Of a stretch of 64,000 bases of DNA, positions 3,026-22,729 are shown piece after piece. The notes beneath the pieces are model-generated. The model was given only the letters and a program-made list of their open reading frames with translations, had not been told where the DNA came from and did not search any database. The stretch comes from Magnetococcales bacterium HCHbin5 (lineage in GTDB: Bacteria > Pseudomonadota > Magnetococcia > Magnetococcales > Magnetaquicoccaceae): assembly GCA_002753505.1 (NCBI GenBank), contig PEAG01000004.1, positions 47,785-111,784 on the forward strand. The letters are read 5' to 3'. The stretch's first letter is position 1. The number at the start of each line of letters is the position of its first letter. The position numbers and the translations under genes were made by a program.

Positions 3026-4486
3026 TTGAAAAAAATATGCGTTGCCGTTGTTGCGTTGCTGGCATGCGGGTTGGGGTGGCCCGATGCTCTCCTGGCCTCA
3101 GGTGGGGGGGAGGCTGCGAAACACCTGGACCTGACCAACCATACGGTGGGTTATCTCTCTCTCCTGCTGTTTTCGGTGGCCTATCTGTTTGTGATGGCGG
3201 AGGAGTTTACCCATCTGCGCAAATCCAAGCCGGTATTGCTGGCGGCTGGCATCATCTGGGCCCTGATCGCCTATGTCTATCTCCAGCATGGGCTGAAATA
3301 TGAGGCAGAGGTTGCGGTACGCCACAATATTCTGGAGTATGCAGAGCTGTTTCTGTTCCTGCTGGTGGCCATGACCTACATTAACGCCATGGAGGAGCGA
3401 CGGGTCTTTGAATCCTTGCGCTCCTGGCTGGTGCGCTCCGGTTTTGGGTATCGTACCCTGTTCTGGTTGACGGGCCTGTTGGCCTTTTTTATCTCGCCGG
3501 TGGCCGACAATCTGACCACCGCGCTGCTCATGTGTGCGGTCATTCTGGCCGTCGGGCGGGACAATCCAACCTTTGTCTCCCTCTCCTGCATCAATGTGGT
3601 CGTCGGAGCCAATGCCGGTGGGGCCTTCAGCCCGTTTGGTGACATCACCACCCTGATGGTTTGGCAAAAAGGGATTGTTCCCTTCGGCACCTTTTTTGCC
3701 CTGTTCGTCCCCTCGCTGATCAACTGGCTGGTGCCCGCTGCCATCATGCACTTTGCCGTTCCCAACCTGAAACCGACACCCAGCCGTGAGGTGGTGGATA
3801 TTCTGCGGGGCGGCAAGCGCACCATCTTTTTGTTCCTGATGACCATTGTCACCGCAGTCAGCTTTCACAACTTTTTGCACATGCCTCCCATGATGGGCAT
3901 GATGCTGGGACTCTCGTATCTCATGTTTCTCGGCTTTTATCTCAAGAAAACATTTGGAAAAACAGAGGGAAAAACCGGCCACCGGCTGCGAAAATACCGG
4001 TGTGAGCAAGATGTGGGCCAGGTCGGTTTTGACCTTTTTACAAAGCTGGCAAGGGCGGAATGGGATACGCTGATGTTTTTCTACGGCGTGGTCCTGGCGG
4101 TCGGCGGGTTGGGTTTTCTCGGTTATCTGACCCTGGTCTCCACGGCCATGTATGGCGGTTGGGGTGCTACAACAGCCAATGTGGTCGTCGGGCTGCTCTC
4201 CGCCATTGTCGATAATATCCCGGTCATGTTTGCCGTGTTGACCATGAACCCGGATATGTCCATGGGGCAGTGGTTGCTGGTTACCCTGACGGCAGGGGTG
4301 GGGGGCAGTCTGCTCTCCATCGGCTCTGCAGCCGGGGTGGCCCTGATGGGGCAGGCCCGGGGCATCTACACCTTTTTCTCCCACTTGAAATGGACGCCTG
4401 CGGTCGCGTTGGGTTATGCCGCCAGCATTTGGGTCCATTTCCTGATGAACGATTCTCTCTTCCAAATACCACCCAGCGTACGTTAG
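3026..4486 (+). CDS. nhaD: Na+/H+ antiporter, NhaD family
   Basis: 486-aa polytopic membrane protein. Signal-like N-terminus, then the typical NhaD opening (HLDLTNHTVGYLSLLLFSVAYLFVMAEEFTHLRKSKPVLLAAGIIW) and 10 or more hydrophobic spans. TTG start. Confidence 0.75.
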   Translation: MKKICVAVVALLACGLGWPDALLASGGGEAAKHLDLTNHTVGYLSLLLFSVAYLFVMAEEFTHLRKSKPVLLAAGIIWALIAYVYLQHGLKYEAEVAVRHNILEYAELFLFLLVAMTYINAMEERRVFESLRSWLVRSGFGYRTLFWLTGLLAFFISPVADNLTTALLMCAVILAVGRDNPTFVSLSCINVVVGANAGGAFSPFGDITTLMVWQKGIVPFGTFFALFVPSLINWLVPAAIMHFAVPNLKPTPSREVVDILRGGKRTIFLFLMTIVTAVSFHNFLHMPPMMGMMLGLSYLMFLGFYLKKTFGKTEGKTGHRLRKYRCEQDVGQVGFDLFTKLARAEWDTLMFFYGVVLAVGGLGFLGYLTLVSTAMYGGWGATTANVVVGLLSAIVDNIPVMFAVLTMNPDMSMGQWLLVTLTAGVGGSLLSIGSAAGVALMGQARGIYTFFSHLKWTPAVALGYAASIWVHFLMNDSLFQIPPSVR

Positions 4487-6672: not shown

Positions 6673-7164
6673 TCAGGGGGATCTGTTGCCCCCGTGCCGT
6701 CCCATGCCAAGCCCCATGCCTCCGCCTGGTCGATGAAAATGGCCATCGCCCACCAGATTGCTTCGTTCGTTTGCGGGCAGCAAGGCAGCGATTTCAGCCA
6801 ATACCCCATGCCACTGCTCCTGGGCGAGCACAGCCGCATGGCGCAGATCGCTCAGGGCCTTTTCCAAACGTGATCGATCCCATGGCTGGGCCTGCAGGGA
6901 CTCTCTGACCTGTTGCTGGGCTGCACGCAACGTATGCATGGCTTGTTGAACCTCGGCATGGTGTTGCTGCCAGATGGTGGCCAATTCGGGTTTTTGCATC
7001 AGATCATGCCGGGAAAGCCCCAGCAGAAGGGGATTGCCCGGCATGGGACTGCCGGCAGGCGGGTCGGATGACAACAGTCGCGAGGCCACCATACCGCCCA
7101 AAAACAGATTGACGGCCAACGAAAGCAACAACAGAGGCCATAATAGACGTTTGTCCTGGATCAT
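6673..7164 (-). CDS. periplasmic Spy/CpxP-like (heavy-metal-sensor family) protein
   Basis: Signal/anchor LLWPLLLLSLAVNLFLGG, then Q-rich helices and a Gly/His-rich tail (HFHRPGGGMGLGMGRHGG). 4-nt overlap with the upstream anti-sigma-like gene. Confidence 0.45.
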   Translation of the reverse strand: MIQDKRLLWPLLLLSLAVNLFLGGMVASRLLSSDPPAGSPMPGNPLLLGLSRHDLMQKPELATIWQQHHAEVQQAMHTLRAAQQQVRESLQAQPWDRSRLEKALSDLRHAAVLAQEQWHGVLAEIAALLPANERSNLVGDGHFHRPGGGMGLGMGRHGGNRSP

Positions 7165-7490
7165 GGTTGCGCCTCCTCAAAATGGCCATAGACCAGCATC
7201 ATGGTCTCTTGCCAGTCGACAGGGGAAGGAGTGACGTGCTGCGTTTCCCAGAGCATACCCAATCCCAACCCCAACAATGCAGAACAGGCCAGGATGGCCG
7301 CCGGATGCCACCAGGAGGTGACTGGCCACCGGATGAAAACCTCCCTGGGCTGCGCCGTGTCGACCGGGAGGGAGAGAATCGTGTTGCGCAGATGGGCGGA
7401 AGGCAGGCTGGCCGGCCACTCGGCCAGAAGTTGGTCGAGATGCTGTTCGGAAATGGGGTGGTCGGTTTGTTCGGGCAGATCGGGCTTCAT
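7161..7490 (-). CDS. putative single-pass anti-sigma factor
   Basis: 109 aa with one TM (AAILACSALLGLGLGMLW). It starts 3 nt after the ECF sigma stop. The call rests mainly on position. Confidence 0.4.
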   Translation of the reverse strand: MKPDLPEQTDHPISEQHLDQLLAEWPASLPSAHLRNTILSLPVDTAQPREVFIRWPVTSWWHPAAILACSALLGLGLGMLWETQHVTPSPVDWQETMMLVYGHFEEAQP

Positions 7491-7493
7491 GGT

Positions 7494-8126
7494 TCACTCT
7501 CCAAGCAAAATGTTTCGCCAGGGGGCCAGCAAAACGCGCAACCGTTTTCGACCACGGGCCAGCAAGGCGGCGACCTCCTTTTCCTCGCGTTGCATCACCT
7601 GCGCCGCTTCGCTGACCCGCAGTCCCAACATGTTGACCAGAATGACCGCACTGCGGCAGGGTATGGGAATGGCCGCCAATGCTGTTTCCAACAGTTGCCG
7701 ACGTTCAGCCTGTTCCAGCAGGGCCAGGGGTGAACACTCCTCTGGCAGCAGCAACCGATCTTCCTCCTCTTCCCAACAGATCTCTTCTGGAAGGCGGTGA
7801 CGCTGACGCAGGCGATCAATGGCCAGGTTATGGGCAACCCGATAGAGCCAGGTGGCAATCCGGGCCTGGGCGCGCCAGTGGGGTGCCTGTTGCCAGAGGC
7901 GCAGAAAACTCTCCTGGGTGATCTCCTCGGCCTCCTGCTGGTTCCCCAACAGACGATTTGCCAAAGTCAAGACTCGGGTCAATTCCCGGTCTACCAGTTG
8001 TTTCCAGGCCGCATGCTGTCCGGCAGCCACCCGCTGCATAAGCTGACCATCCGCCTGGATGGGGAGAGGATCGATCTCTTGCTGCACCATGGTTTCGCTC
8101 TGCCTGGGGTCCGGGTTGGTGACCAC
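7494..8126 (-). CDS. ECF-type RNA polymerase sigma-70 factor
   Basis: Region 2 (EAEEITQESFLRLWQQAPHW...WLYRVAHNLAIDRLR) and region 4 (SAVILVNMLGLRVSEAAQVM) are both recognisable. Confidence 0.85.
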   Translation of the reverse strand: MVTNPDPRQSETMVQQEIDPLPIQADGQLMQRVAAGQHAAWKQLVDRELTRVLTLANRLLGNQQEAEEITQESFLRLWQQAPHWRAQARIATWLYRVAHNLAIDRLRQRHRLPEEICWEEEEDRLLLPEECSPLALLEQAERRQLLETALAAIPIPCRSAVILVNMLGLRVSEAAQVMQREEKEVAALLARGRKRLRVLLAPWRNILLGE

Positions 8127-8166
8127 GTTCTAGGATGCTGCTGCCAACCGACATCTCCTGTTGGAA

Positions 8167-8541
8167 CTACCGGGAACAGGGGCCACCCCCTGTCCAACCC
8201 GGACCGTTGCCAGCACAGGGAGCTGTTTGGCAGGGAGTCACGCCACCGCCACGGCGGCCGGGCGGCGTGAAGGCCATGAACTCCTCTTTGGCAATGCGAC
8301 CATCCTGGTTGCCATCCAGTCGGGCCATCATGCGTTCAATGTGGTAGGGGTGGCGATTGCCCCAAGGTGCCTGGGAGAGCTCCGCGCGGTCCAGCACACC
8401 ATCCTGATTGCGATCCATCATGGTAAAATGGGCCGTACGTCGTTCGGTCACTGTCTGCGCATTGCTGATGACCGGCCAGAGCAGCAAGGCGGCACACAGC
8501 ACCAAGCCTGTTTTTTTTCCTGTTGTCAGATATGTTTCCAC
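8167..8541 (-). CDS. secreted EF-hand calcium-binding protein
   Basis: GTG start with AGGAGA 7 nt upstream. Signal peptide (LVLCAALLLWPVISNAQ). Two EF-hand loops (DRNQDGVLDRAE, DGNQDGRIAKEE). Gly/Cys-rich tail. Confidence 0.7.
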   Translation of the reverse strand: METYLTTGKKTGLVLCAALLLWPVISNAQTVTERRTAHFTMMDRNQDGVLDRAELSQAPWGNRHPYHIERMMARLDGNQDGRIAKEEFMAFTPPGRRGGGVTPCQTAPCAGNGPGWTGGGPCSR

Positions 8542-8660
8542 GGTCGTTTCTCCTTGGTTGGAAAGGGATCCATTTCCCCCTCATTCTCTTTAACGTTGCC
8601 GCGCCTTTTTTCTGACCTTGGCTATGCAATTATTTTGCTCTGCTCCGTGTCCTGTGGTTG

Positions 8661-9458
8661 TCATCTCAACGCTGATGGGCTTTGGTCGCAATGGGCGGCC
8701 TGGATAACCTGTTGCCACTCCGCCAGAGAGACAAAGCGATAGTGGGCCTTGTCCGCCGCTTGCAAAATGGTGGGCAGAGCCCGCAGGCTGGCAGCCCGGC
8801 TGCTGTGAAAAAGCAGAATGGCACCCGGATGGAATCGCCGAACCACATTGCCGGCCACGGTGGTCGCGCTGTCACCGGCCCAGTCCCTGGAATCGATGGT
8901 CCACAACAGGGTACCCATCCCATGCGCCTGGGCCGTTTGCACAACCGTGTCATTGAAATCGCCATACGGGGGACGAAACCACTGCAACGTGATGCCGAGC
9001 GACTGCATGAGCTGCACACCCTGCTGAAAATCTGTCGTCAACCGGGCGCGGGAAAAGCCGCTCAACAGGTGGTGCCGATAGGCGTGATAGGCAATTTCAT
9101 ATCCTTTCGCCCGCATCTGTTCGACGATGGCCGGCATCGCCCGCGCCCGCTCGCCCACATAAAAAAAGGTTGCTGGAATGGCGCGTGGCTCCAGCACTGC
9201 CCCGATGGCCAGATCCCTTTTGTCGGGTCCGTCGTCAAAGGTGAGTGCCAGGATCCGCTGCTCCGGACGGGAGAGACAGTCCGGCTCCATCGCCAACCCG
9301 CTGCCCGGATAAAGGTAGCGGGTTTTGAAGGGCATCCTGCCCCGTTTGGCCAAATGGCGGCTCTCTTTGGAGGGACCATCGGCCGCCAGAACGGTGACTG
9401 CACTCCAACAGAGCAGAACCGACACCCCCACCAGCCGGACAATCCGTCGCTTCACCAT
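8661..9458 (-). CDS. polysaccharide deacetylase (NodB homology domain), secreted
   Basis: Start chosen at MVKRRIVRLVGVSVLL (signal peptide, AAGGA SD). NodB motifs LTFDDGP and HAYRHH. It begins 13 nt after the M50::HlyD gene stop. Confidence 0.8.
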   Translation of the reverse strand: MVKRRIVRLVGVSVLLCWSAVTVLAADGPSKESRHLAKRGRMPFKTRYLYPGSGLAMEPDCLSRPEQRILALTFDDGPDKRDLAIGAVLEPRAIPATFFYVGERARAMPAIVEQMRAKGYEIAYHAYRHHLLSGFSRARLTTDFQQGVQLMQSLGITLQWFRPPYGDFNDTVVQTAQAHGMGTLLWTIDSRDWAGDSATTVAGNVVRRFHPGAILLFHSSRAASLRALPTILQAADKAHYRFVSLAEWQQVIQAAHCDQSPSALR

Positions 9459-9471
9459 GGAAAATCCTTTG

Positions 9472-11589
9472 TCAAAAACCGCTCTCCTGCTGATAAACAG
9501 CCTGTATGAGTTGCCACCACCGGGACAACAGACTGACCGGGGCGGTCTGCAACCGGAGTATGCCACGGGTCACCTGCTGCAGCGGAAACGGCTGTTCCAA
9601 CTCCAGGTCAAGCCGATAATAGGAACCCTCCACCACCTGTTTGCCATCCTTCTGTGTGCGGACCGGGATGGTGCCACCCTGCACCGAGGCCAGATAGGGG
9701 GAGGCGAGTACCCGGGTGGGGGTTTGATCCATCCGCACCACCCGACCCGGCAAGGGGGGGGTCTGCGGCAGATCCGGATAGAACAGGCCACGGTCGCCGA
9801 CCTGGATCCGCTCCCGATCCGCCGCCGCTACATATCCTTTGACCAGCGGCTGGGTTCCCCCGATCACCGTCAGCAAGGGCTCATCCTTGGCGACCCAGTC
9901 GCCCGGGCGGAGATCACGGGCCAGATCCACCACCTGGCCTGCGAAGGGGGCATGGATGTGGAGTTTTTTCTCCTCATCCCGCAGAGCCTGCTCGGTGGTC
10001 AGGGCGGTGGCCAGATCCTGCTGCAGCACCGGCTCCTGCTCCATGGGGTCCGTCTCCATGCTCTGCATGGCCAACCGCCAACGCAACAGGACAATCTCGC
10101 GCGCGGTCTTGTCCAGCCGGTAGTGCAGCTCAGGGTTGTGCAGGGTCAGCAACCGTTCACCCGGGGCCACCTGTTGGCCGGATGCCACCTCCAGTTGGGT
10201 CAGTTGGGCGGCGGCGGGGGCATAGATAACCATCTGTTCCGTGGCCTGCAACAGACCGGCGGCCTGGGGGGCGTTATACTGTGCGGGCAGTGCCAGGGCA
10301 ATCAGCAGCAGGCTCAACAACAGGGTTGATCTCAGCATCGCTCGGTTCCACAGCAAATGTTTTCGCAACCTGAACCATATCATCCCCTCTTGTGCCACGG
10401 GACGCAACAAAAACCAGCCGATCTCCAGACTCAACAGCAACAGCCCCAGCAGCTTGAAAAATTGGTGGTAGACCAGCAGGGCGATACCCAGGAACAGCAG
10501 CAGTCGATAACACCAGACCGCATAGGCAAAGAGGAGCAAAAAACGCCGCAATGGTCGGGAAAAGGCTTCAGGTGGTGGCACGCCCCACCCGAACAGCCAC
10601 TCCCGCAACTGCCAACGCCCGAGCCGGAAGGCGCGCTGTTGCAGATCCGCGATTTCCAGATAGTCCGACAGCAAAAAATAGCCATCAAAGCGCATCAACG
10701 GATTCAGGTTGACCGCCAAAGTCAGCAGCCAAACGGCACTGGCCAGCAAAAAGGCGGCACTCCGCAACGGGCCATCGGCCAAAAAAACCCAGGCCAGGGA
10801 GGCAAAGGCCGCCAGGGCAACCTCTGCCAGCATACCCGCCCCGCCGACCACCAGACGGTGGCGACGGCTGCTCAGTGTCCAGACGTCGCTGGTATCGGTA
10901 TAAAAGACTGGCCACATGACCATCCAGGCCACGCCAACGGTCGGCACCCGGCAACCATAGCGACGGGCCGCGTAGGCATGACCCAACTCATGGACCGCCT
11001 TGCTCACCAGCAGAGTGGCCCCATAACAGAGCAGGCCGAAAGGGGTGTAAAATTGCGGCAGGCTGCTGGTAAACAGCTCCCATTGGCGCGCAATCAGGAA
11101 CAGGCTTGTCAGGGCGACCAGCAATACCAGTGCGACAAACCAGCCGCTGAACAACCCATCCACCAGGGGTAACGTCCGCCGCAAAAAACGGTCCGGGTTC
11201 CAGATGGGGATGCGCAAAAACAGATAATGGTGCAGCAGCCATCGCCAGAGGCTCTCCTGACGGCTGCGCTGCGCGGTCAACAGGCGGTTGTGATCAGCGG
11301 TTGAAACCGGCATCAGCAGGTGGCTTTGCTGCAGGCGTTCCAACAGTTGCACCACAGCCGTTGGCTCTGGATGCCAAGTGGTTTCCGCCCCGATGGCGGC
11401 GGCGATCCGGGTCGGGTTGGGCAACGACCAGCGGGAGAGGATCTCGAACTCCTGCCAGCCTATGCGAAAAAATCGATTGCTGGCAGGGTCGTGCAGGGTC
11501 CAGGTGGGGGAACCGTCCCGGGCGGGCGGTCCCGCATGCAACGACAGATCTTCCCGCAGTGGTGGCAGTGGCTGCTCCCGAGGATCCAT
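9472..11589 (-). CDS. site-2-protease (peptidase M50) domain fused to a HlyD-type membrane-fusion domain, with a possible PqqD-like N-terminus
   Basis: Start set at MDPREQ (ATG 11589), 5 nt after the upstream stop. The 830-aa ORF extension overlaps the upstream gene. M50 motifs HELGHAY and NLNPLMRFDGY lie within multiple TM spans. The C-terminal third has lipoyl/barrel-sandwich HlyD features (IHAPFAGQVVDL...GDWVAKDEPLLTV). Confidence 0.75.
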   Translation of the reverse strand: MDPREQPLPPLREDLSLHAGPPARDGSPTWTLHDPASNRFFRIGWQEFEILSRWSLPNPTRIAAAIGAETTWHPEPTAVVQLLERLQQSHLLMPVSTADHNRLLTAQRSRQESLWRWLLHHYLFLRIPIWNPDRFLRRTLPLVDGLFSGWFVALVLLVALTSLFLIARQWELFTSSLPQFYTPFGLLCYGATLLVSKAVHELGHAYAARRYGCRVPTVGVAWMVMWPVFYTDTSDVWTLSSRRHRLVVGGAGMLAEVALAAFASLAWVFLADGPLRSAAFLLASAVWLLTLAVNLNPLMRFDGYFLLSDYLEIADLQQRAFRLGRWQLREWLFGWGVPPPEAFSRPLRRFLLLFAYAVWCYRLLLFLGIALLVYHQFFKLLGLLLLSLEIGWFLLRPVAQEGMIWFRLRKHLLWNRAMLRSTLLLSLLLIALALPAQYNAPQAAGLLQATEQMVIYAPAAAQLTQLEVASGQQVAPGERLLTLHNPELHYRLDKTAREIVLLRWRLAMQSMETDPMEQEPVLQQDLATALTTEQALRDEEKKLHIHAPFAGQVVDLARDLRPGDWVAKDEPLLTVIGGTQPLVKGYVAAADRERIQVGDRGLFYPDLPQTPPLPGRVVRMDQTPTRVLASPYLASVQGGTIPVRTQKDGKQVVEGSYYRLDLELEQPFPLQQVTRGILRLQTAPVSLLSRWWQLIQAVYQQESGF

Positions 11590-11594
11590 CCCTG

Positions 11595-12965
11595 TCACAG
11601 TCCCAGCAGCTGACGGGCGGCCGCCCATGGGCGGCGCAGCAGATAATGAAACAGCCGCACCGGGGCACCGATCAGTTTGGCGGTACCCCGCAATCCCAGA
11701 CGGGGCAGCGGCTCTCCGGCGGCAAAACGGGCCCGCAGGGTATAGGCCAACACCCCTTCCGGGGTCAGGTCGGCCTGATAACTGGCATAACGGAGCTGAG
11801 CCGCCAGGGTCCGGGAACCATCGGTGGCAGGGAACAGGGTGACGGCGGTGCCCGGTTGCAACAGGATTGCGTCCGCAACCGGCAGCCGAATTTCCAACTC
11901 CACCTGCGCCGGGTCCGCCAGCACCATCAGCCGCTCTCCCACATGCACGGGCCGCCCCACCCAATCGTTTTCATCGCTGTAGACCGCGATCCCATCCCGG
12001 GGAGCCACAACCGTGACCCGTTCCAGTTGGGCGCGAATATAGTTTAAATCGGCCTCCTTCTGCTGCACCCGGCCTCGCAGCAGAGCCAGTTTGGCCTTGC
12101 TTTTCGGCTCCTGCAACGCCCCCTGTACCGCTTGCCGGTACTCTGTCTGTGCCACCTCCCACTCTTTGCGGGTGATCTCCAGCCGATTGGTCAGTTGGGT
12201 GGTGTCCAGATTGAGCAACACCGCTCCGGCTTGCACGCTTTGATTGGGCAAAACATGAAAGGCGTCCACCACCCCGTCCAGTGGGGCCCGGATCACGGCC
12301 GGCTGGAAGGCCACCACCTCGGCCGGAGCCAACACCGACTGTTGCACCGGTATCGACAGCAACAGAGCAGCCAACAGCAGCCCAAACAGGGCAACAGTGG
12401 GCGGCCGCTGTGCCCACAGCCGATCCCGCAGCCGGTGTCGCGTCAACAATCCCCACCAGGCCGGAGCCATGGTCAATCCGAGATGGGCCAGCAACTGCTG
12501 TTCCGCTTCGGACCAGGGCTCGGCCCGAACCAGCAACAGTCCACCCAGCCAGTGGGGGGGAGCGGTCGACGGGCTGTTGCCCGGCAACTGCAAGGGCAGC
12601 CAGAGGGCATGCTCCGGCAACCATGCCTGCCAGGAGGCGGCCATGGCCGCCGGCAGTTGGTCGGCGGTGAGGGTTGTCCGGGTGGGATGCTGGCTGGAGA
12701 GATGGCGCAGCAGGCTGGTAAGCCATTGGATATAGGGAGCCTCCGGGTTGACCACGGGCAGGCCGGAGATGGCGGTGATTGTTCCCCGTTCGCCCCCGGG
12801 AGAGAGCTGCCACAAGGCGGCCTGCCGATAGGGGAGCAGATGGATCAGCGCATTGACCGCCAAAAAGCCAAATTCGGCTGCGGTGGGTGCCGTCAGCAGC
12901 TTTTGTTGCAGATTGAGCAGGGCGGCAATGGTGGCCTGGGGATCGGCAGTGGCCTGGGGAACCAT
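11595..12965 (-). CDS. HlyD-family membrane-fusion protein with a GAF-like cytoplasmic N-terminal domain
   Basis: About 175-aa soluble N-terminus, one TM (TVALFGLLLAALLLSIPV), then HlyD features (VIRAPLDGVVDAF...coiled coil...VVAPRDGIAVY...VHVGERLMVLA). Confidence 0.7.
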   Translation of the reverse strand: MVPQATADPQATIAALLNLQQKLLTAPTAAEFGFLAVNALIHLLPYRQAALWQLSPGGERGTITAISGLPVVNPEAPYIQWLTSLLRHLSSQHPTRTTLTADQLPAAMAASWQAWLPEHALWLPLQLPGNSPSTAPPHWLGGLLLVRAEPWSEAEQQLLAHLGLTMAPAWWGLLTRHRLRDRLWAQRPPTVALFGLLLAALLLSIPVQQSVLAPAEVVAFQPAVIRAPLDGVVDAFHVLPNQSVQAGAVLLNLDTTQLTNRLEITRKEWEVAQTEYRQAVQGALQEPKSKAKLALLRGRVQQKEADLNYIRAQLERVTVVAPRDGIAVYSDENDWVGRPVHVGERLMVLADPAQVELEIRLPVADAILLQPGTAVTLFPATDGSRTLAAQLRYASYQADLTPEGVLAYTLRARFAAGEPLPRLGLRGTAKLIGAPVRLFHYLLRRPWAAARQLLGL

Positions 12966-12981
12966 GGTGAGCCTCGCTGGG

Positions 12982-13749
12982 TCAGCGGCTAAAGTTGAGA
13001 ATGACCTGACCGCTCATGCCCGGGGTTAACTCTGGAAAATGGCCAATGATTTCACCGGTCATTCTGACCAGCTGATTGACCGCATCGATTCGGGCCCCAA
13101 ACCCGACAATTTTGGCGGGATAACTGTTGCCGGTTTCGTCAACCCGCAGCAAAAAACGGTCATCCTTGTGGTAGTGTTGCAACCAGCGGGAAGGAATGTT
13201 GACCGTCAGCTCGAGGGTGGCGGGGTTATGAATTTCCATCACCAGCTGTCCCGGCTTGACATACTGATGCTCCTGCACCTCCAGCCGGACAATCTGGCCA
13301 GGAAACGGGGCGATCATCTGACAGCTTTTCAGCTCGGCCCGGATGATGGCAAACTCGGCCTGGGCTTTGGCCGCCTCCGCCTTGGCGTTGGTCAGCTCCA
13401 GCTTGCTGCTCACGTTGAGTTGGTCCAGCCGTTCCAGCATGGCGGCCTTGTCGGCCTCCGCGTCCACAATGGCCTTGGCCCGCAGCAGTTTGGCCTGTTG
13501 CACGGTACAATCAAACAGGCCCAGCGTGTCTCCCGCCTGGAAAAAGGCCCCTTCCCGAAAGGGCAACTGTACCAGACGAGCCCCTATTTCGCTGGAGAGG
13601 GTGGTAAACTGTTTTGCCCGCAGTTCGGCCCGCAGCTCCGGCCCGGCTCCCGCTACCCCTGCTGGGGGCGGAGAGAGGGGCTCCTCGGCCCCCAACAGGC
13701 CGATACTGCCCAGGCAACAGAGCGCGATCCTCCAGACGATCCCTCTCAT
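12982..13749 (-). CDS. short HlyD/RND-adaptor-type periplasmic membrane-fusion protein
   Basis: Signal peptide (IALCCLGSIGLLGA), a lipoyl-like motif (LPFREGAFFQAGDTLGLFD) and a second half-motif (MIAPFPGQIVRLEV). The ATG overlaps the OMF stop (ATGA). Confidence 0.75.
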   Translation of the reverse strand: MRGIVWRIALCCLGSIGLLGAEEPLSPPPAGVAGAGPELRAELRAKQFTTLSSEIGARLVQLPFREGAFFQAGDTLGLFDCTVQQAKLLRAKAIVDAEADKAAMLERLDQLNVSSKLELTNAKAEAAKAQAEFAIIRAELKSCQMIAPFPGQIVRLEVQEHQYVKPGQLVMEIHNPATLELTVNIPSRWLQHYHKDDRFLLRVDETGNSYPAKIVGFGARIDAVNQLVRMTGEIIGHFPELTPGMSGQVILNFSR

Positions 13750-16322
13750 CGCTGTTCCCCCGTCGGCTGTGCAGCCGGGGAGAGCGCGGAGAGTCGTGCT
13801 GTCGGTCGGTCGTCTGTTTTTTCAGCCACAATGCGCCAATATTTCTCCTCTTTTCTGAGTTGCAACGTTTTGCGCTTTTCCCATCTTTCGTTGGCAGTAT
13901 TGAAAACGATGCGCACAAAGGCGGTGGCCTGGCTGTCGGACGCCACCTCGATGGCCACCTCGGCCAGATTGACCTGCACCCTGGTTGCGGGGTTCAGGAG
14001 GGTGGTGTAGGCCTCCATCCACTGGGTCCGATTCCAGCCATTTTCCGGCAAAAACTGCTCCGAATAGAAGGTCAGGAAGCTCTGGGCATCCTGACGGGCC
14101 CAGGCATCCGCCCACTCCTTGACCATGGTTCGCACCGCCTCTTCCAGCCGTACCGGTGGGGCAGGGGGGGGGGCCGGTGCGGCGGCCGAAAGAGAGTTGG
14201 CGGGCGTGCGGGACGGTACCGGCTGGGCGGTTGCCTCCCCCTCCTCGATCAAACTTTGTTCTCCCTCCGTACTCTCCCGGCTCGGCTTGTTCTGCCTGGC
14301 TGCGGGGGGGGGTGGAGCGGCTGGCTCCGGTTGGGCGTTGCGGACCGCTGCCACAGGGGGGGGCTGGACGGCGACTGTTGGTTGCACGGCGACCGCTGGC
14401 TGCTTGTCCGCCGCTGGCTGCCTGTCCACCGCGGACTGTTTGTCCATGGCCGCCATCGCCTGACGAACCAGTGCATCGATCTCCGCTTGTTTGGGGATAT
14501 TATCCGGGGCAACAGTCGGCTTTTGCGCTGCCTGTGTCGCCGGCAATACCGGTGAGTGTCTGCCGCTCTTCCGGTCGGGTGGGGTGAAAAGGCTCTCCAT
14601 CTCCCGATTCAGAGCCTGATCCGCGGTCGGATTCAGCCGACCGGCTGCCAAGCCATCCGCTGGCGTCTCCATCCGGGGCGGCAGGGAGATTCCCTCCTGC
14701 CATGCCATCACCGACTCCCGGATGGATTGGCTCAAGAGTGGCAGCGGGGCCTCCTGGCTGGCGGTGGGCAGCAGATCCACCCCAAGGGAGACAAAAATCA
14801 TGCCGATGGCATTCTGGAGCTCCGCGTAGGCCTTGTTGCGCTGCAATTGTGACATGATGGCACGGGTGGCGGCCCGGATCTGTTCCAGACGGTTCTGGTT
14901 GGTACTGCCGGCATCCAGGGCCAGATTTTCCTGTATGCGCTGGTCCACCGCGCTTATGTTGCTGAAGCTTTCCAGTCTGCGATTGGCATCCTGATATTTG
15001 CGGTAGCTGATATGAACCTGGGACAGGATCGCCATGTTGAGTGCCACCCGCCGCAGCTGACTGAGAATGGCCTGGTTGTCTGCCAAACGGATGGCGGTGG
15101 GGCCGGCGACCAGCTTCATCAGGTTGCCGGTCACCTGCAGGCCGGCATCCTGCCAATTGGAGTCCATGGCAAAGGAGTTGCTGTCATAGTGGCTGGCTGT
15201 CTTGAACTCCAGTCCTGGCAACATTCTCAACAGGGCCTTGCGGGTTTCGGCGGCACTGATGCGGGATTTGTACAGCTCCATCCGCAATTCCGGTCGATTC
15301 ATCAGGGCCAACTGCTCCATCTCTGCCACGGTGGCCCGGATCGGTGTTACCGTCAAGCTGTTTTCCGGTGGAATGTTCAACTCAAAATCGGTGCCCGGGG
15401 GCAGATTGATCAACAGGGCCAGATTTTTTTTGGCCAGTGCAAGCTCTTCCCGCAGGGTCTCCAACTGTTGCACCACCTCCAACAGCTCCCGTTGAAACCG
15501 CATCATCTCCAGTTGGGGCCGCAGACGCTCCTTTTCCACCTGGTGCGCCACCGCCAGGGCAACCCTGGCCTCTTTCAGTACCGGCTCGATACGACCTTGC
15601 AACTGTTGGGCACTGGCAGCCCGCCAATAGGCGGATTGCACCTCCTGGAACTGGCTGTGGGCCAGTTTGCGCCGGTTCTCCTCTGCCACCAGCACCCGGT
15701 CGGCCGCCTGCTTGGCCTGAAAATAGCTGACACCAAAGTCAAGTACATTCCAGACCAGGCCCAAATCCGCATACTGTTTGTCCCGATCCTGGGAGGTGGA
15801 ATAGCCGGCAGAGCTGGTTTCGGTCGTCAACGAATAACCGCTTGCGGCCTCCACGCTGCTGCGACTGTCAAAGCCGGCCTTGGCGGCCAGGCGCGGCAGC
15901 AGGTCATAGTTGGAGAGATCCACCTCGGTCAGGGCGACCGTTTTTTCCAGTAAATGGACCCGATAGTCCAGATTATATTTGATGGCCCGCGCCACCGCCT
16001 CGTACAGATCGATCGGCTGCGACACAGGCTCCTGGGCGGCGCGTACCGCCTGTTGATCCGCCTGCAACACGGCCGTCAGTTCTTCGGTCGTCAAGGGGTT
16101 GGGGGCGATGGTGCAGGCCAGCAGACCCAACAGGGAGCCTCCCGCCAAAACCAGCCGCAGACCAACGCGCCTGCCAGCAACCGGTCGCTTGGGCAGGCCG
16201 CGTCCACTCGTCCACCGGACAACCGGGCGAAAACAGCGGTTGCACAGGGCACAATAGTGTTGGAAAGAGGAAGGAGGCATGGAGTCTACTGGCAACGGGT
16301 TAAAAGGCGAACCAGGGCGCAT
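13746..16322 (-). CDS. TolC-family outer-membrane factor (lipoprotein-type) with a Pro/Ala-rich linker and a C-terminal NTF2/Cds6-like domain
   Basis: Lipobox LLGLLAC. Two OEP-type repeats with coiled coils (QAVRAAQ...YLPRLAAKAGF...). After about aa 560 comes a Pro/Ala/Gln linker (QPAADKQPAVAVQPTVAVQPPPVA), then VKEWADAWARQDAQSFLTFYSEQF...YWRIVAEK. The exact start is uncertain (16322 or 16280). Confidence 0.75.
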   Translation of the reverse strand: MRPGSPFNPLPVDSMPPSSFQHYCALCNRCFRPVVRWTSGRGLPKRPVAGRRVGLRLVLAGGSLLGLLACTIAPNPLTTEELTAVLQADQQAVRAAQEPVSQPIDLYEAVARAIKYNLDYRVHLLEKTVALTEVDLSNYDLLPRLAAKAGFDSRSSVEAASGYSLTTETSSAGYSTSQDRDKQYADLGLVWNVLDFGVSYFQAKQAADRVLVAEENRRKLAHSQFQEVQSAYWRAASAQQLQGRIEPVLKEARVALAVAHQVEKERLRPQLEMMRFQRELLEVVQQLETLREELALAKKNLALLINLPPGTDFELNIPPENSLTVTPIRATVAEMEQLALMNRPELRMELYKSRISAAETRKALLRMLPGLEFKTASHYDSNSFAMDSNWQDAGLQVTGNLMKLVAGPTAIRLADNQAILSQLRRVALNMAILSQVHISYRKYQDANRRLESFSNISAVDQRIQENLALDAGSTNQNRLEQIRAATRAIMSQLQRNKAYAELQNAIGMIFVSLGVDLLPTASQEAPLPLLSQSIRESVMAWQEGISLPPRMETPADGLAAGRLNPTADQALNREMESLFTPPDRKSGRHSPVLPATQAAQKPTVAPDNIPKQAEIDALVRQAMAAMDKQSAVDRQPAADKQPAVAVQPTVAVQPPPVAAVRNAQPEPAAPPPPAARQNKPSRESTEGEQSLIEEGEATAQPVPSRTPANSLSAAAPAPPPAPPVRLEEAVRTMVKEWADAWARQDAQSFLTFYSEQFLPENGWNRTQWMEAYTTLLNPATRVQVNLAEVAIEVASDSQATAFVRIVFNTANERWEKRKTLQLRKEEKYWRIVAEKTDDRPTARLSALSPAAQPTGEQR

Positions 16323-16466
16323 CGGTCAGTTGTGAGTAAAGCAAAGAAAGTGCCATATATATCCGGGTCGTAAAATTATTTTTTTACCCGGCAAGCCATC
16401 GTGTGCCATAATGGTGCTGACAGTGGTGGTGCGGTTGCGTTGTCCGGCAGTCAGGAGAAAGGTTCC

Positions 16467-19400
16467 ATGGATATTCGGCAGATGGATTCGATTGTCAAAG
16501 GTTTGACCACGCTGTTACGCCTCCAGCCGGGTCGACCGCTGCCGTTGGCGGCGGAGGGGCGGTTTTTCCTGGAGTTGGAGCCTAGAATCCTGTTCGATGG
16601 GGCGGGTTTGTTGCCAGCCGGGTTGGATGATCCTCTTTTTGACGGCCATGGGGCGGAGCCCCCCCAGGATGGTACCCCGCATGGATTGGAGGCGGTTGCA
16701 GAGTTGGCCACCGCCCTGCAGGGACACCTGTTGCCGGAGCAGCCCCTGCGCCGGGAGATTGTGTTTGTCGATCCCCAGGTTGAAACCTATCAAACCCTGC
16801 TGGCCACCGCTGCCCCCGATCGTCTGGTGGTCGTGCTGGATGCTGACCAGGATGGGGTGGAGCAGATTGCCGCCACCCTGGCCCGGCAGGGTTCGTTTGA
16901 TGCCGTTCATATCCTGTCCCACGGCACCACCGCGCAGCTCTCTTTGGGCAACAGCACGCTGTCGGCCGCCAACCTTGACCATTACGAGAAGCTGTTGGCC
17001 CAATGGGGGCAAGCCATCAACCAGACGGGCGATATTCTGATCTATGGCTGTGCGGTGGGAGCCGGGGCAGAAGGGGCCGCCTTTGTGCATCGATTGGCCG
17101 CACTGACCGGCGCGGATGTGGCCGCTTCAGAGGATTTGACCGGGGCGCAAAACAAAGGCGGTGACTGGGATCTGGAGGTGGTCAGCGGCACCATCGATGC
17201 CACAATACCCTTCTCCCCCGAGGGCCAGTCCCACTATGAGGCCATCCTGGCCGCTACCGCCATCAATCTGGCCAGCCTGAATGGTGCGACAGGCTTTCGC
17301 CTGGATGGGGTGACAGCGGGAGATTTGGCGGGCATCTCCGTCCATGCGGCCGGCGACATCAACGGCGATGGCTTTGATGATCTGATCGTCGGGGCCCGCA
17401 ATGCCACCGGCTCCCATGGTGCCAACTCGGGTTCCACTTTTGTGGTATTCGGCCAATCGACCGCCTTTGGTGCCACCTTTGGCTTGAGCAGTCTGAATGG
17501 TGCCAACGGCTTTCGACTGGATGGTGCAGCGGCCGGGGACTATTCCGGTTATTCCGTCAGTGGCATCGGTGATCATAACGGCGACGGTTTTGATGATCTG
17601 CTGATCGGTGCCCACAATGCCTCCGGGGCAGCGGGTGCCAGCTTTGTGCTGTTTGGCCAATCGACCGCCTTTGCCGCCACGGTGGATCTGAATGGCCTGA
17701 CCGGTGCCGATGGCTTTCGCTTGAATGGCGTGACAGCGGGTGACATGTCAGGGAAGTCAGTGAGTGGGGCGGGAGACATCAATGGCGACGGGTTCAGCGA
17801 TCTGCTGATCGGAGCCTACAAGGCGAATCCGAATGGTGAACCCATCAGTCATGGAGTGGGCTATGTGGTCTTCGGCAAAGCGGCGGGTTTCGGGGCCACG
17901 TTTGAGCTGTCCGATTTGAGTGGTGCCAACGGCTTCCGTCTCGATGGGGCGGCGGCTGGTGATTATGCGGGTGTCTCGGTCAGCAATGCCGGTGATATTA
18001 ACGGCGATGGGTATGACGATCTGGTGATTGGGGCCCACTGGGCGAGCCAGGGGGCCGTCACCTACGCTGGGGCCAGCTTTGTGGTCTTTGGCAAAGCGGC
18101 GGGCTTCGGTGCAACCCTCAATCTCTCGACTCTGGATGGCAACAGCGGTTTTCGTCTGGATGGTGTGGTCGGGGGGGTGCCGGGTGATCAGGCGGGCCGT
18201 TCGGTCAGCGCGGCGGGGGATTTCAATGGCGATGGCTATGATGATCTGCTCGTCGGTGCCTACAAGGCGGATCCCAGTGGCGGTGCGGACGCTGGTTCCA
18301 GCTATCTGGTCTTCGGCAAGGCTGCCGGTTTCAGTTCGGTCCTGAACCTTTCCAGCTTGAGCAGCACAAGCGGTTTTCGGCTGGATGGCGGGGCGGCTGG
18401 TGATGAATCGGGCCGTTCGGTATCGGGGATTGGGGATGTCAACGGCGATGGTTTTGCGGATCTCATCATCGGCGCGCGTTATGCGGACCCGACGGCGGCC
18501 AATGCCGGGGCCGCCTATGTGATCTTTGGCCAATCGTCGGGTTTCAGCACCATCAGCCTCTCGGCAAACAGCTTTACCGGCTATTACCTGAACGGCCTGG
18601 CCGCCTCTGATTTTGTCGGTATTGCGGTCAGCGGGGCCGGGGATGTCAATGGGGATGGCTTTGGCGATTTTATCATTGGGGCAACAGGGGCGGATCCGGG
18701 AGCCAGAAACAGTGCGGGCTCCAGTTATCTGCTGTTTGGCAGCGATGCCACCGGTGCGGTGACCTTTTCCGGCACCAGCGGTGCGGATACGCTCACTGGG
18801 GGCACGGCCGGTGCGGAGCGGTTTGTGGCCGGTGCCGGCAACGATACCATGACAGGTGGTGGCGGAGCGGACATTTTTCATGGTGGTGCCGGAGACGATA
18901 CCATCACCGTTGCCGATCTGACCTTTCAATGGGTGGATGGGGGGCGTGGCAGTGACACGCTGGCACTGTCGGGCTCCGGCATGCAGATGAACCTGACCAC
19001 CCTGCGGGGCAGATGGAGTGCCATTGAGATCATTGACCTGACCGGCAGTGGCAACAACCTGTTGACGGTGACAGCATTGGATGTACTGAACCTGTCTGAC
19101 AGCAGCAATACCCTGACGGTCAACGGCAATGCGGGGGACAGTGTGGTGATGGGCAGTGGCTGGACCAGTGGTGGCACGGTGGGCGGTTACCAGATCTATA
19201 CCCAGGGCCAGGCAACCCTGCGGATCAGTGCTGCCACCGGTGCCACGGCTGCGGTTCCCACTTTGACCGCCTTTGCCGCCCCCGCAGGCACGGTCAATGA
19301 AGACAGCCAGGCAACCATCACCCTGGCCGATTTGAAGGCGGTCGGCAACGAAGCGGACGCAGACGGTACGGTGGACGGCTTTGTCATCAAGGCTGTCAGC

Positions 19401-20975
19401 AGCGGGACACTGTGGATCGGTACCAGTTTGGCAGCCGCAACCCCCTGGGCAGCGGGCAGCAATGAGACGGTGGACGCCACCCACAACGCCTATTGGACCG
19501 GGGCGCAGGATGCCAATGGTACACTGAACGCCTTCACAGCGGTCGCAAAAGACAATGCCGGGACAGAATCCAGCACGGCGATACAGCTGCAGATGAGCGT
19601 CACGGCCGTCAACGACAGCCATACCGGCGGTGCCAGCATCAGCGGCACCGCCACCCAGGGTCAAACCCTGACCGCCACCCATACCCTGGCCGATGTGGAT
19701 GGTCTGGGTGCCATCAGTTATCAGTGGAGGGCCAACGGCAGCAATATCAGTGGCGCGACCGGCTCCACCTTTGTTCTGACTGAGGCCCAGGTGGGCAGTA
19801 CCATCACCGTTGTACTCAGTTATACCGATCTGCAAGGGACGGCTGAAAGTGCGACCAGTAGCGCAACCGCAACGGTAGCGGCCCTGGCTTCGCCCCCCAG
19901 CTCTTCCGGGACACCTGCGCCTGCACCCGCACCTGCAAGCCCAACCACCGGTGGCAGTGCAACAGAGGCGGCAACACCGGTTGCCGATTCAGGCGGTTCG
20001 GGCAGCACTGCCACGGCGACAGCGGTGACGGTTGTGCAGACCACGGCCGCTGCGACCGGATTGGATGCGGTGGCTGGCAGCGGTTATGGTGGTTTGATCA
20101 CGGCGGCGAGTGGCACCGCACCAGCCCCTGTCAATCCGGTGATCGAACAGCTTTCTGCGGTCAATGCACTGCTGCTGACCGATCTTTCATTGTCGGTGGT
20201 CGCTGTTATCCCCACGGATACGGTCTTTGCGGCGGTCAGCGGTGATGGGCAGGGCGCAGCAGGCACCCTGGTGCTGGCCAACCCCTCCAATGCCAGCGGT
20301 CGACTCTCCGGCAGCGGTTTGGCGGAGACAGGCGGAGGGAGTGGAACGGGAGAGCATGGAGCCGGGGATATGTTTATCCATTCAGGCCAGGAACGGGAGG
20401 ATGGCTTTTTCAGCAAAAAACGAATACCCGGCATGGAACTGCTGGGGGATGGTCTGATCAAGGTGGCTGGTTTTATCGGGTTGGGTCTGGAAAACGGTGG
20501 GCCTGTCAAGGTGGAAGGGTTTGGGGGCAGCGGCGGCGATGAGCAGGGCATGGCTGTCGAGGGTTTCGGCGGTCGTGCTACGACCGAACGGCCAGTGGCG
20601 GTGGAGGGATTTGGTGATGTGGGCGCGGGGGAGGCCAATCCGGCTGCCCCCGATGGGTTTGGCGATGCAACCGCCGTGAACCATCGGCAGCAGGAGGACG
20701 AGGATGAGCTGTTGATCCAGCAGGAACCCGCCACAGAGCCGGTGAGTGCTTCGGCCCAGGGCTCCGCCGAGGCGGTTGGGGCAAAGCAGGAGGCGGAAGA
20801 AAACCAGGATGCTGTCGGCGACGAGGATGACAGCAGCGCACAGGTGCCGGAAAACCAGCCGACAAGGGCAGGAAAGCCCGCATTTACGGCCCAGCTCTCC
20901 CCGTTTGGTGCCAAGGGATTTCATCAGGCCAGCATGGCACTGCTCAAAAAAATGATTGAGTCTCCGGTGAAATAG
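16467..20975 (+). CDS. giant secreted DUF4347 / FG-GAP (7-blade) / RTX-repeat adhesin-like protein
   Basis: ATG at 16467 with AGGAGA about 8 nt upstream. LEPRILFDGA opening and a DUF4347-like block (VFVD...HILSHG...LLIYGC...GGDWDLE). Seven GDxNGDG[FY]xDLxxGA FG-GAP repeats. RTX nonapeptides (GGAGNDTMTGGGGADIFHGGAGDDTI). Ig/cadherin-like VNDxxTG modules. Low-complexity acidic tail. Confidence 0.85.
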   Translation: MDIRQMDSIVKGLTTLLRLQPGRPLPLAAEGRFFLELEPRILFDGAGLLPAGLDDPLFDGHGAEPPQDGTPHGLEAVAELATALQGHLLPEQPLRREIVFVDPQVETYQTLLATAAPDRLVVVLDADQDGVEQIAATLARQGSFDAVHILSHGTTAQLSLGNSTLSAANLDHYEKLLAQWGQAINQTGDILIYGCAVGAGAEGAAFVHRLAALTGADVAASEDLTGAQNKGGDWDLEVVSGTIDATIPFSPEGQSHYEAILAATAINLASLNGATGFRLDGVTAGDLAGISVHAAGDINGDGFDDLIVGARNATGSHGANSGSTFVVFGQSTAFGATFGLSSLNGANGFRLDGAAAGDYSGYSVSGIGDHNGDGFDDLLIGAHNASGAAGASFVLFGQSTAFAATVDLNGLTGADGFRLNGVTAGDMSGKSVSGAGDINGDGFSDLLIGAYKANPNGEPISHGVGYVVFGKAAGFGATFELSDLSGANGFRLDGAAAGDYAGVSVSNAGDINGDGYDDLVIGAHWASQGAVTYAGASFVVFGKAAGFGATLNLSTLDGNSGFRLDGVVGGVPGDQAGRSVSAAGDFNGDGYDDLLVGAYKADPSGGADAGSSYLVFGKAAGFSSVLNLSSLSSTSGFRLDGGAAGDESGRSVSGIGDVNGDGFADLIIGARYADPTAANAGAAYVIFGQSSGFSTISLSANSFTGYYLNGLAASDFVGIAVSGAGDVNGDGFGDFIIGATGADPGARNSAGSSYLLFGSDATGAVTFSGTSGADTLTGGTAGAERFVAGAGNDTMTGGGGADIFHGGAGDDTITVADLTFQWVDGGRGSDTLALSGSGMQMNLTTLRGRWSAIEIIDLTGSGNNLLTVTALDVLNLSDSSNTLTVNGNAGDSVVMGSGWTSGGTVGGYQIYTQGQATLRISAATGATAAVPTLTAFAAPAGTVNEDSQATITLADLKAVGNEADADGTVDGFVIKAVSSGTLWIGTSLAAATPWAAGSNETVDATHNAYWTGAQDANGTLNAFTAVAKDNAGTESSTAIQLQMSVTAVNDSHTGGASISGTATQGQTLTATHTLADVDGLGAISYQWRANGSNISGATGSTFVLTEAQVGSTITVVLSYTDLQGTAESATSSATATVAALASPPSSSGTPAPAPAPASPTTGGSATEAATPVADSGGSGSTATATAVTVVQTTAAATGLDAVAGSGYGGLITAASGTAPAPVNPVIEQLSAVNALLLTDLSLSVVAVIPTDTVFAAVSGDGQGAAGTLVLANPSNASGRLSGSGLAETGGGSGTGEHGAGDMFIHSGQEREDGFFSKKRIPGMELLGDGLIKVAGFIGLGLENGGPVKVEGFGGSGGDEQGMAVEGFGGRATTERPVAVEGFGDVGAGEANPAAPDGFGDATAVNHRQQEDEDELLIQQEPATEPVSASAQGSAEAVGAKQEAEENQDAVGDEDDSSAQVPENQPTRAGKPAFTAQLSPFGAKGFHQASMALLKKMIESPVK

Positions 20976-22698: not shown

Positions 22699-22729
22699 AG
22701 CGGTCACTTGCAAAAAGTGTGGACAGTGA

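Follow-up and report, generated by a model that had tools for sequence, protein, structure and literature searches.

Within a stretch of 64,000 nt from Magnetococcales bacterium HCHbin5 (contig PEAG01000004.1; in the following, the window), we investigated an envelope gene cassette encoding a TolC-like outer-membrane factor (OMF), two periplasmic adaptors or membrane fusion proteins (MFPs), and an M50-type protease carrying a third MFP domain at its C-terminus. The cassette had been pointed out before from the sequence alone, without database searches (the sequence-only reading), as four tightly coupled minus-strand genes. Gene list and sequence bear this out in every detail (Table 1): the OMF and short MFP genes overlap by 4 nt (ATGA), 16 nt separate the short MFP from the GAF-like::MFP gene, and 5 nt separate the latter from the M50::MFP gene. 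Divergent from the OMF gene, and outside the coordinates considered by the sequence-only reading, lies a gene for a giant repeat protein, to which we return below.

Table 1. Features of the cassette and of the adjoining giant gene (positions refer to the window, residues to the respective protein)
Feature	Position	Strand	Size or residues	Evidence
OMF, TolC/OprM-like	13746..16322	-	858 aa	Pfam OEP x2, 75 bits
Short periplasmic adaptor (MFP)	12982..13749	-	255 aa	RND_mfp, HlyD_3
GAF-like::MFP	11595..12965	-	456 aa	HlyD_3, HlyD_D23, AlphaFold2 model
GAF-like cytoplasmic domain (predicted)	12516-12941	-	residues ~9-150	AlphaFold2 model, GAF matches of homologues
Single transmembrane segment of GAF-like::MFP	12345-12401	-	residues 189-207	
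PqqD-like::M50::MFP fusion	9472..11589	-	705 aa	Peptidase_M50, HlyD_3
Cytoplasmic PqqD/RRE-like domain (predicted)	11260-11562	-	residues ~10-110	AlphaFold2 model, PqqD matches of sister-type proteins
Seven-transmembrane M50 core	10291-11193	-	residues ~133-433	
HELGH	10978-10992	-	residues 200-204	
NLNPLMRFDG (NxxPxxxxDG)	10681-10710	-	residues 294-303	
Periplasmic MFP with alpha-hairpin	9472-10266	-	residues 442-705	HlyD_3, 52.1 bits
Giant repeat protein, putative cargo	16401..20975	+	1,524 aa from GTG	DUF4347, FG-GAP, RTX
LEPRILFDGA, LEPR-XLL leader motif	16575..16604	+	38 residues after likely start	
GKPAFTAQL, C-terminal motif	20871..20897	+	~25-40 residues from end, followed by a short helix-like tail	

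The start of the 705-aa fusion protein is backed by a 100%-identical database protein and by homologues of ~700 aa. Its assignment to the site-2 proteases (S2Ps) of family M50, proposed earlier from the motifs, was confirmed: the protein scores 29.1 bits with Peptidase_M50 (PF02163, cut-off 27.2), the match covering residues 192-271 only, the same family is precomputed on nearly all M50::MFP homologues, and an alignment of 88 homologues (40-71% identity) shows no variation at residues H200, E201, H204, N294, P297, D302 and G303, the Asp of NxxPxxxxDG being the predicted third zinc ligand, as the M50 motif has it. In an AlphaFold2 model built from the 88-sequence alignment (predicted local distance difference test score, pLDDT, 88.3) HELGH sits inside a helix (residues 183-210) that is followed by a beta-hairpin, and seven long membrane helices span residues 149-433; the predicted topology is therefore N-in, C-out. 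The N-terminal domain is modelled in the order b-b-b-a-a-a (strands 16-20, 29-34 and 39-43; helices 45-52, 59-69 and 76-88; pLDDT ~90), in agreement with the sheet of three strands and bundle of three helices expected of a PqqD-like domain, and the C-terminal domain contains a hairpin of helices 486-509 and 519-541. A Foldseek search with this model placed MacA on top (E = 6.5e-15), with EmrA, ZneB and MexA also found, and the sequence profile of the C-terminal domain matches ZneB, MacA and an MFP of a type I secretion system (T1SS), so that the HlyD-type C-terminal third described in the sequence-only reading is upheld by sequence score and MacA-like fold alike. In a search of the profile against Protein Data Bank (PDB) sequences, the M50 core resembles solved S2Ps only via the HExxH helix (3b4r, 7w6x); whole-chain Foldseek searches with the models of the 705-aa and 456-aa proteins gave only adaptor structures among the 50 matches listed. 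Among curated families, NCBIfam daptide_HExxH (NF041824) reaches 152.6 bits (cut-off 300; residues 36-386 aligned to positions 24-354 of the 379-position model) and YydH/LiaK (NF058609) 40.1 bits (cut-off 225). As these scores are far below the cut-offs, the protein is not a member of either family; by sequence, the closest curated relatives of its N-terminal domain and transmembrane (TM) core are nevertheless leader peptidases of RiPPs (peptides made by ribosomes and modified after translation).

All three adaptors match HlyD_3 with 52-54 bits (cut-off 22) and, together with the OEP score of the OMF, this agrees with the earlier identification of MFPs and a TolC-like channel. The short MFP scores 53.8 bits with HlyD_3 and 98.1 bits with NCBIfam RND_mfp (cut-off 94.9); its residues 3-21 are hydrophobic and form a signal or anchor at the N-terminus. 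In the GAF-like::MFP protein (HlyD_3 53 bits, HlyD_D23 32 bits) a GAF-like domain is followed by a long helix, the TM segment and a periplasmic MacA-like MFP; its AlphaFold2 model (pLDDT 92.4) again finds MacA as top Foldseek match (E = 3.8e-15), with hairpin helices 256-283 and 289-315. The label 'GAF-like', taken over from the sequence-only reading, is reasonable though not proven: the N-terminal domain is modelled in the GAF-like order a-a-b-b-a-b-a-b-b and Pfam GAF (PF01590) is precomputed on 3 of 120 homologues, but on the window protein itself this family has no match. By profile matches and models, the three adaptor paralogues are of the MacA/HlyD type with the predicted lipoyl, alpha-hairpin and beta-barrel architecture of MFPs, and those fused to the M50 and GAF-like domains are anchored in the inner membrane. 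The OMF has a lipobox (LLAC, around residues 66-69) and is longer than its orthologues elsewhere (500-680 aa), with an additional C-terminal NTF2-like domain (residues 731-835, 13818-14132; Cds6_C 46 bits, also SnoaL_3) preceded by a Pro/Ala-rich linker of ~170 residues. TolC-type proteins do not usually bear an NTF2-like domain; the OMF of a Magnetococcus locus (L006) is also long, as an 805-aa stop-to-stop open reading frame (ORF).

Among the six-frame ORFs of the window we found no ATP-binding cassette (ABC) ATPase in a Walker-A/LSGGQ/Walker-B screen and no resistance-nodulation-division (RND)- or major facilitator superfamily (MFS)-like ORF in a TM-count screen, and Pfam scans of 20 flanking or candidate window ORFs revealed no ABC, RND or MFS transporter either; motif, TM-count and Pfam checks thus agree with the sequence-only reading that none is encoded in these 64 kb. 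The 20 scanned ORFs include a methyl-accepting chemotaxis protein (MCP), a periplasmic binding protein, sensor kinases, CitMHS, Rnf subunits, CobS, a Mrp/ParA-type ATPase and RecN/SMC. Polytopic candidates in the window are limited to the CitMHS carrier (3026-4486), the Rnf subunits and, 42 kb away and without an adjoining ATPase, an ORF whose resemblance to ABC-2 permeases is below threshold. Two large minus-strand ORFs next to the giant gene (20992-24853), similar in size to HlyB and HlyD, were identified by Pfam as the MCP and the periplasmic binding protein.

We then looked at the occurrence of the cassette in other bacteria. With one genome per species the survey yielded 80 loci, and 82 non-redundant loci were analysed by searching their six-frame ORFs with the window proteins; individual loci are cited by their survey numbers (L). 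M50::MFP is present in 82/82 loci, GAF::MFP in 73, the short MFP in 63 and the OMF, with unchanged position, in 58. The complete four-gene set occurs in 55/82 loci in constant gene order, and most of the incomplete cassettes are found where contigs end within or just beside them. Carriers belong to the alpha-, beta-, gamma- and delta-Proteobacteria, Nitrospira (including Ca. N. defluvii), the anammox bacterium Scalindua and the Geobacteraceae, with Pseudomonas, Chromobacterium, Cupriavidus, Variovorax, Methylomonas and Phytobacter among the culturable ones. Because the same order recurs in 55 of 82 loci and in distant phyla, the four-gene arrangement is no chance juxtaposition. With at least 4,767 homologues (E < 1e-5) and 3,315 clusters at 50% identity (E <= 1e-30) the M50::MFP family is a large one, and its members go by 'HlyD family efflux transporter periplasmic adaptor subunit' or 'peptidase M50' in databases and by 'putative peptide zinc metalloprotease' at JGI. 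Independent gene calls for distant homologues are available from two Pfam-annotated neighbourhoods (Azospirillum canadense and an uncultured gammaproteobacterium, the M50 protein of which is present in 177 blocks of the assembly collection): both contain a DUF4347 giant, OMF, short MFP, mid-sized MFP and M50::MFP, and no ABC gene.

An ORF with ABC motifs was seen in 8 of the 82 genome loci and in 1 of 80 metagenome loci (described below), at no conserved position, and inspection of the gaps between M50 and giant genes in the survey loci disclosed no conserved extra component or ATPase. An HlyB-type ABC exporter is thus absent from the window and is no conserved neighbour of the cassette in the loci surveyed. 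The co-occurrence of M50::HlyD, GAF::HlyD, HlyD and OMF genes without a conserved pump, which the sequence-only reading had proposed to look for, is therefore borne out by these surveys. Some gaps between M50 and giant genes contain lineage-specific genes (L072, L074, L076, L081, L086, L088, L133, L160) for a GNAT-like acetyltransferase, a phage-tail-collar-like protein and a protein of ~120-140 aa, in some cases also for sulfotransferase-like and cupin-like proteins, all of them named by eye from the sequence; these accessory genes may modify the cargo.

The divergent giant gene of the window has its likely ATG at 16467, and a promoter-like site precedes this ATG (16383-16412); apart from it, a promoter/terminator scan gave nothing above background. 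The protein contains DUF4347 (197 bits, 16758-17249), seven FG-GAP repeats (161 bits) and, in its middle, RTX repeats (HemolysinCabind, 36 bits). Next to the cassette, 54 of the 82 loci have a giant ORF, and most of the other loci end with their contigs. The N-terminus is visible for 33 of the 54 giants; the remainder comprises 21 ORFs with a length of 1,200 aa or more, of which 20 run off the sequence end. All 33 visible N-termini share the pattern hydrophobic-LE(P/S/Q)R(I/M/L/F)(M/L)FDGAA, located 25-80 residues from the start and usually after a basic stretch, and followed by a low-complexity linker and, in 29/33, by DUF4347 (the giants of L041, L051, L068 and L075 have the LEPR motif without DUF4347). 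A regular expression for the motif finds a single ORF in each locus, and this is a giant every time. The NCBIfam model of the LEPR-XLL leader, NF012209, matched 10/10 giant N-termini tested (best E = 8e-8).

Several observations concern DUF4347 itself. The Cys of its YGC motif does not vary and the His-Gly of its SHG motif hardly does; the two are separated by 43 residues, a spacing reminiscent of caspases and clan CD, and 3 of 16 members show weak matches to Pfam Peptidase_C80, the MARTX/TcdA autoprocessing domain (best E = 0.0015). Judging from these residues and matches, the domain, which stands shortly behind the leader, may be a cysteine protease that cleaves itself. In the PDB, chain G of the multi-chain entry 9qpe (201 aa, 'DUF4347 domain-containing protein') matches the DUF4347 profile (E = 2e-4).

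In the reverse direction, a survey starting from the DUF4347 profile provided 80 metagenome loci, of which those with at least 5 kb of flanking sequence entered the association test. Cassette genes (M50, MFP or OMF) are found near 19/26 giants with a LEPR leader, compared to 0/12 leaderless giants, in which DUF4347 begins within ~20 residues of the start (Fisher p = 3.7e-5). Since leaderless DUF4347 giants never have the cassette, it is the leader that the cassette tracks, and DUF4347 as such can be ruled out as the determinant. The association is thus seen from both sides and is leader-specific, and on these grounds of gene neighbourhood the giant is the probable cargo; the suggestion of the sequence-only reading that a leader-bearing substrate is handled at a TolC conduit gains support from it. 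The two kinds of giants also differ at their C-termini. A GGxGxD motif near the C-terminus, as in T1SS substrates, is present in 13/19 leaderless giants but in only 2/34 LEPR giants, whereas the motif G(K/R)xx(L/F)(T/S)xQ(L/F) occurs, as a strict regular expression, in 12/34 LEPR giants and 0/19 leaderless ones (p = 0.002), with looser forms visible in most other LEPR giants. It could be a second targeting signal. The leaderless giants look like classical T1SS substrates, and DUF4347 therefore seems to be common to two export routes. The C-terminal motif was noted in giants of L002, L049, L059, L061, L073, L090, L145, L149 and L153, and a minority of LEPR giants (L036, L056, L112, L122) instead finish with a conserved hydrophobic stretch, WLLRSGxLLxSL..PAW..DPLPV, that resembles a C-terminal membrane anchor or a sorting signal. 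Leaderless giants are often encoded in tandem pairs, without the M50 cassette (e.g. L087, L095, L128, L138, L141, L146, L148).

These data bear on a more conventional explanation, i.e. that the locus belongs to an ordinary T1SS with an ABC exporter encoded elsewhere in the genome and that the M50 protein acts as an accessory peptidase of leader or anchor, with no role in translocation. Adaptors and OMF are typical parts of T1SS or efflux systems, RTX repeats are present in the window giant, giant adhesins are a classic cargo of T1SSs, and the window represents only 64 kb of a 117-kb contig. In known loci, however, ABC and MFP genes are linked while TolC is often unlinked, and this arrangement would be reversed in ~150 loci. 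Furthermore, three adaptor paralogues and a polytopic M50 protein are kept as a unit, and the LEPR giants lack the RTX-type C-termini that are typical of the leaderless DUF4347 giants. We therefore regard an unlinked exporter as unlikely.

The metagenome loci also contained a sister cassette that adjoins giants with a leader of the classical LEPRxLLSAD form (L116, L117, L120, L122, L137, L144). Its genes encode an MFP of ~600 aa, an M50 protein (685-760 aa) and a short MFP; inspection of the gaps between M50 and giant genes showed a third adaptor in this cassette. The sister M50 proteins keep HExxH, NxxPxxxxDG and the C-terminal adaptor (E = 1e-11 to 1e-24 with the window-type C-domain profile), and a profile of the window-type N-domain does not pick up their N-terminal domain. 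For this N-terminal domain of the sister proteins PqqD (PF05402) is the top or only meaningful Pfam match in 6/6 sequences, over the whole 67-position model, with scores of 13.5-21.2 bits that stay below the threshold of 23.4. Profile-profile comparison aligned the sister and window-type N-domains over 88 columns (hhalign probability 84%, E = 7e-6). From these comparisons we infer that the N-domain is a leader-binding module resembling PqqD and the RiPP recognition element (RRE), which would have diverged together with its leader.

A PqqD-like domain next to an M50 core invites the idea of a RiPP or bacteriocin exporter and maturase, as known for the M50 proteases of daptides and YydF, in which case the giant would be a bystander. 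The best NCBIfam matches, daptide_HExxH and YydH/LiaK, and the family name used at JGI fit this idea, too. Yet the scores are well under the family cut-offs, neither the Pfam-annotated nor the six-frame neighbourhoods contain a conserved small precursor, radical-SAM or other modification gene, and what is conserved next to the cassette is the giant, in a leader-specific manner. As precursor and modification genes are not conserved, we hold this explanation to be very improbable.

Taken together, our data are best accounted for by a dedicated envelope-spanning module for export and maturation of megaproteins with a LEPR leader, constructed like a T1SS or tripartite system, in which the M50 protease occupies the place of the pump; we assign this reading a probability of about 0.55. 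Its stronger form, a distinct ABC-independent pathway with PqqD-like recognition, M50 processing, three adaptors leading to a TolC-like channel and no dedicated ATPase, is offered only tentatively and seems somewhat less probable than its opposite. The module might work as follows. The PqqD/RRE-like domain would bind the LEPR leader and present it N-in to the HExxH/NPDG site, which faces the cytoplasm in the seven-TM model as in other S2Ps and would remove the leader. S2Ps prefer N-in substrates in which a basic N-terminus precedes a short, semi-hydrophobic stretch with many helix breakers (P, G), and the removal of an N-terminal pro-sequence by an M50 enzyme has a precedent in SpoIVFB. The three adaptors would jointly form a periplasmic sleeve docking onto the lipoprotein OMF trimer, and cleavage might be coupled to passing the unfolded polypeptide on into the duct of adaptors and OMF, following a logic like that of peptidase-containing ABC transporters (PCATs). 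Alternatively, cleavage could free a polypeptide that is already threaded and tethered, in a LapG-like manner. The cytoplasmic GAF-like domain might, speculatively, act as a gate that answers to a small ligand. Candidate energy sources would be the proton-motive force and the extracellular Ca2+-driven folding of RTX, cadherin and FG-GAP repeats as a ratchet; for RTX proteins, such a ratchet is established.

The LapG-like variant leads to another explanation, in which the locus is no exporter but a retention-and-release device similar to LapA/LapG/LapD: the giant would be threaded C-first and stay tethered by the LEPR segment and a folded DUF4347 plug until GAF-gated M50 cleavage frees it from the cell. 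The conserved C-terminal motif of the LEPR giants (a possible C-terminal secretion signal), the folded N-terminal domain after the leader, the cytoplasmic GAF-like sensor fused to an adaptor and the P/G helix breakers in the LEPR motif, which S2Ps favour in N-in segments, would all suit such a device. It has most features in common with the export module but would still require another translocation motor, genes similar to LapG or LapD are not conserved in the surveyed loci, and tethering at the surface is hypothetical. We judge it rather improbable.

Several points speak against the export module as well. The Pfam threshold for Peptidase_M50 is passed only narrowly. For the window-type N-domain, an alignment profile searched against the PDB and Pfam and NCBIfam scans of the individual aligned members (E <= 10) returned no direct PqqD match, and its assignment as an RRE is indirect for this reason. 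The leader of the window giant scores 16.1 bits with NF012209 (E = 0.0065), just below the cut-off of 17. Seven of the 26 LEPR giants have no cassette within the flanking sequence in view, and conversely six loci with full 10-kb flanks (L007, L012, L013, L020, L035, L082) have M50::MFP without a giant ORF, some of them also without OMF or short MFP; in these six, the cargo may be unlinked or the module may be used otherwise. Moreover, we know of no precedent for proteins of 1,500-4,000 aa crossing the inner membrane with neither a conserved ATPase nor a known protein-conducting channel. An unlinked ABC exporter would remove this difficulty. That the cassette both cleaves the leader and transports the protein is what we infer from comparative and structural evidence.

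The proposed module shares features with several known systems. As in the T1SSs of giant RTX adhesins (LapA-LapEBC, SiiE-SiiCDF, MpIBP), an OMF and HlyD-type adaptors are encoded next to a Ca2+-binding megaprotein, an adaptor carries a cytoplasmic extension, and a special role of the N-terminal region of the cargo is probable. In contrast to them, the cassette locus lacks an ABC exporter and has three adaptor paralogues instead of one, one of these adaptors is fused to M50, and the cargo has a LEPR leader and a non-RTX C-terminal motif. With PCATs and bacteriocin T1SSs (CvaAB-TolC, RaxABC) it would have in common a leader peptidase covalently joined to the export machine, coupling removal and export; its peptidase is, however, an M50 protein embedded in the membrane where theirs is a C39 cysteine protease of the cytoplasm, the fusion partner is an adaptor in place of an ABC transporter, and the putative cargo is a megaprotein rather than a peptide. 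The M50 proteins of the daptide (NF041824) and YydH/LiaK (NF058609) families, thought to remove precursor leaders, resemble its N-domain and TM core, but they have no C-terminal adaptor and work with ABC exporters on small modified peptides in Gram-positives. RseP and SpoIVFB share with the cassette protein HExxH and NxxPxxxxDG in TM helices and, according to the model, the re-entrant beta-hairpin; unlike these, it has neither PDZ nor CBS domain but possesses a PqqD-like N-domain and an adaptor in the periplasm. The substrate of SpoIVFB is not a classical TM protein.

On the cargo side, NF012209 and DUF4347 already catalogue the N-terminal motif and the first domain of the giants; in the full-text literature we found passing mentions of them only, and no function, secretion route or partner system. 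One such mention concerns the DUF4347 protein PA0256, described in mBio as a putative Hcp-dependent effector of a type VI secretion system (T6SS). Nor did the full-text literature yield any M50::HlyD fusion or OMF/MFP/M50 operon, most subscription journals lying outside its coverage; a published definition of this operon type, which the sequence-only reading had not been aware of, did not turn up, and we see a small chance that a description exists somewhere. Apparent hits were discarded: 'M50' in reviews of tripartite systems proved to be a residue number and a DOI and not the protease, the DUF4347 mentions were the T6SS effector and a table of proteomics data, and a preprint on giant proteins deals with a different system.

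Downstream of the cassette in the window (6673-9566, minus strand) lie genes for a polysaccharide deacetylase, a secreted EF-hand protein, an extracytoplasmic function (ECF) sigma factor, a small TM protein, possibly the anti-sigma factor, and a CpxP/Metal_resist-like protein; the set looks like an envelope-stress unit. Its presence raises the question whether the cassette is a small-molecule or metal efflux pump, or else a module for regulated intramembrane proteolysis acting on the nearby ECF sigma/anti-sigma pair (7161-8126). The adaptors do score with RND, CzcB and MacA families, the ECF sigma factor, small TM protein and CpxP-like protein are encoded only 1.3-2.8 kb downstream, and S2Ps classically cleave anti-sigma factors. 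But a pump subunit is missing, and sigma, anti-sigma, deacetylase and EF-hand genes accompany the cassette in 0-2 other loci of ~165. Not being conserved with the cassette, a link to these downstream genes was ruled out, and we consider either version of this explanation scarcely credible.

Every part of the cassette is of a known kind, and it is the combination, together with the apparent absence of a transporter, that looks new. By definition, a tripartite envelope machine has an energised transporter in the inner membrane; the widespread and strictly conserved cassette would either challenge this definition or expose a partner that has gone unrecognised. If our reading is true, it would provide function and secretion route at once for three orphan families of sequences, the M50::HlyD fusions, the LEPR-XLL leader and part of DUF4347. 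Such fusions number in the thousands, in Pseudomonas, Chromobacterium, Azospirillum, methanotrophs, Nitrospira, anammox and magnetotactic bacteria, and culturable carriers are at hand (Pseudomonas nitroreducens, P. indica, Chromobacterium vaccinii, Cupriavidus, Variovorax, Azospirillum). An export tag for very large proteins consisting of a leader and its protease might possibly be of use in biotechnology. In the environmentally important bacteria that carry the cassette, the giant adhesin-like cargo probably shapes biofilms, aggregation and cell-cell contact.

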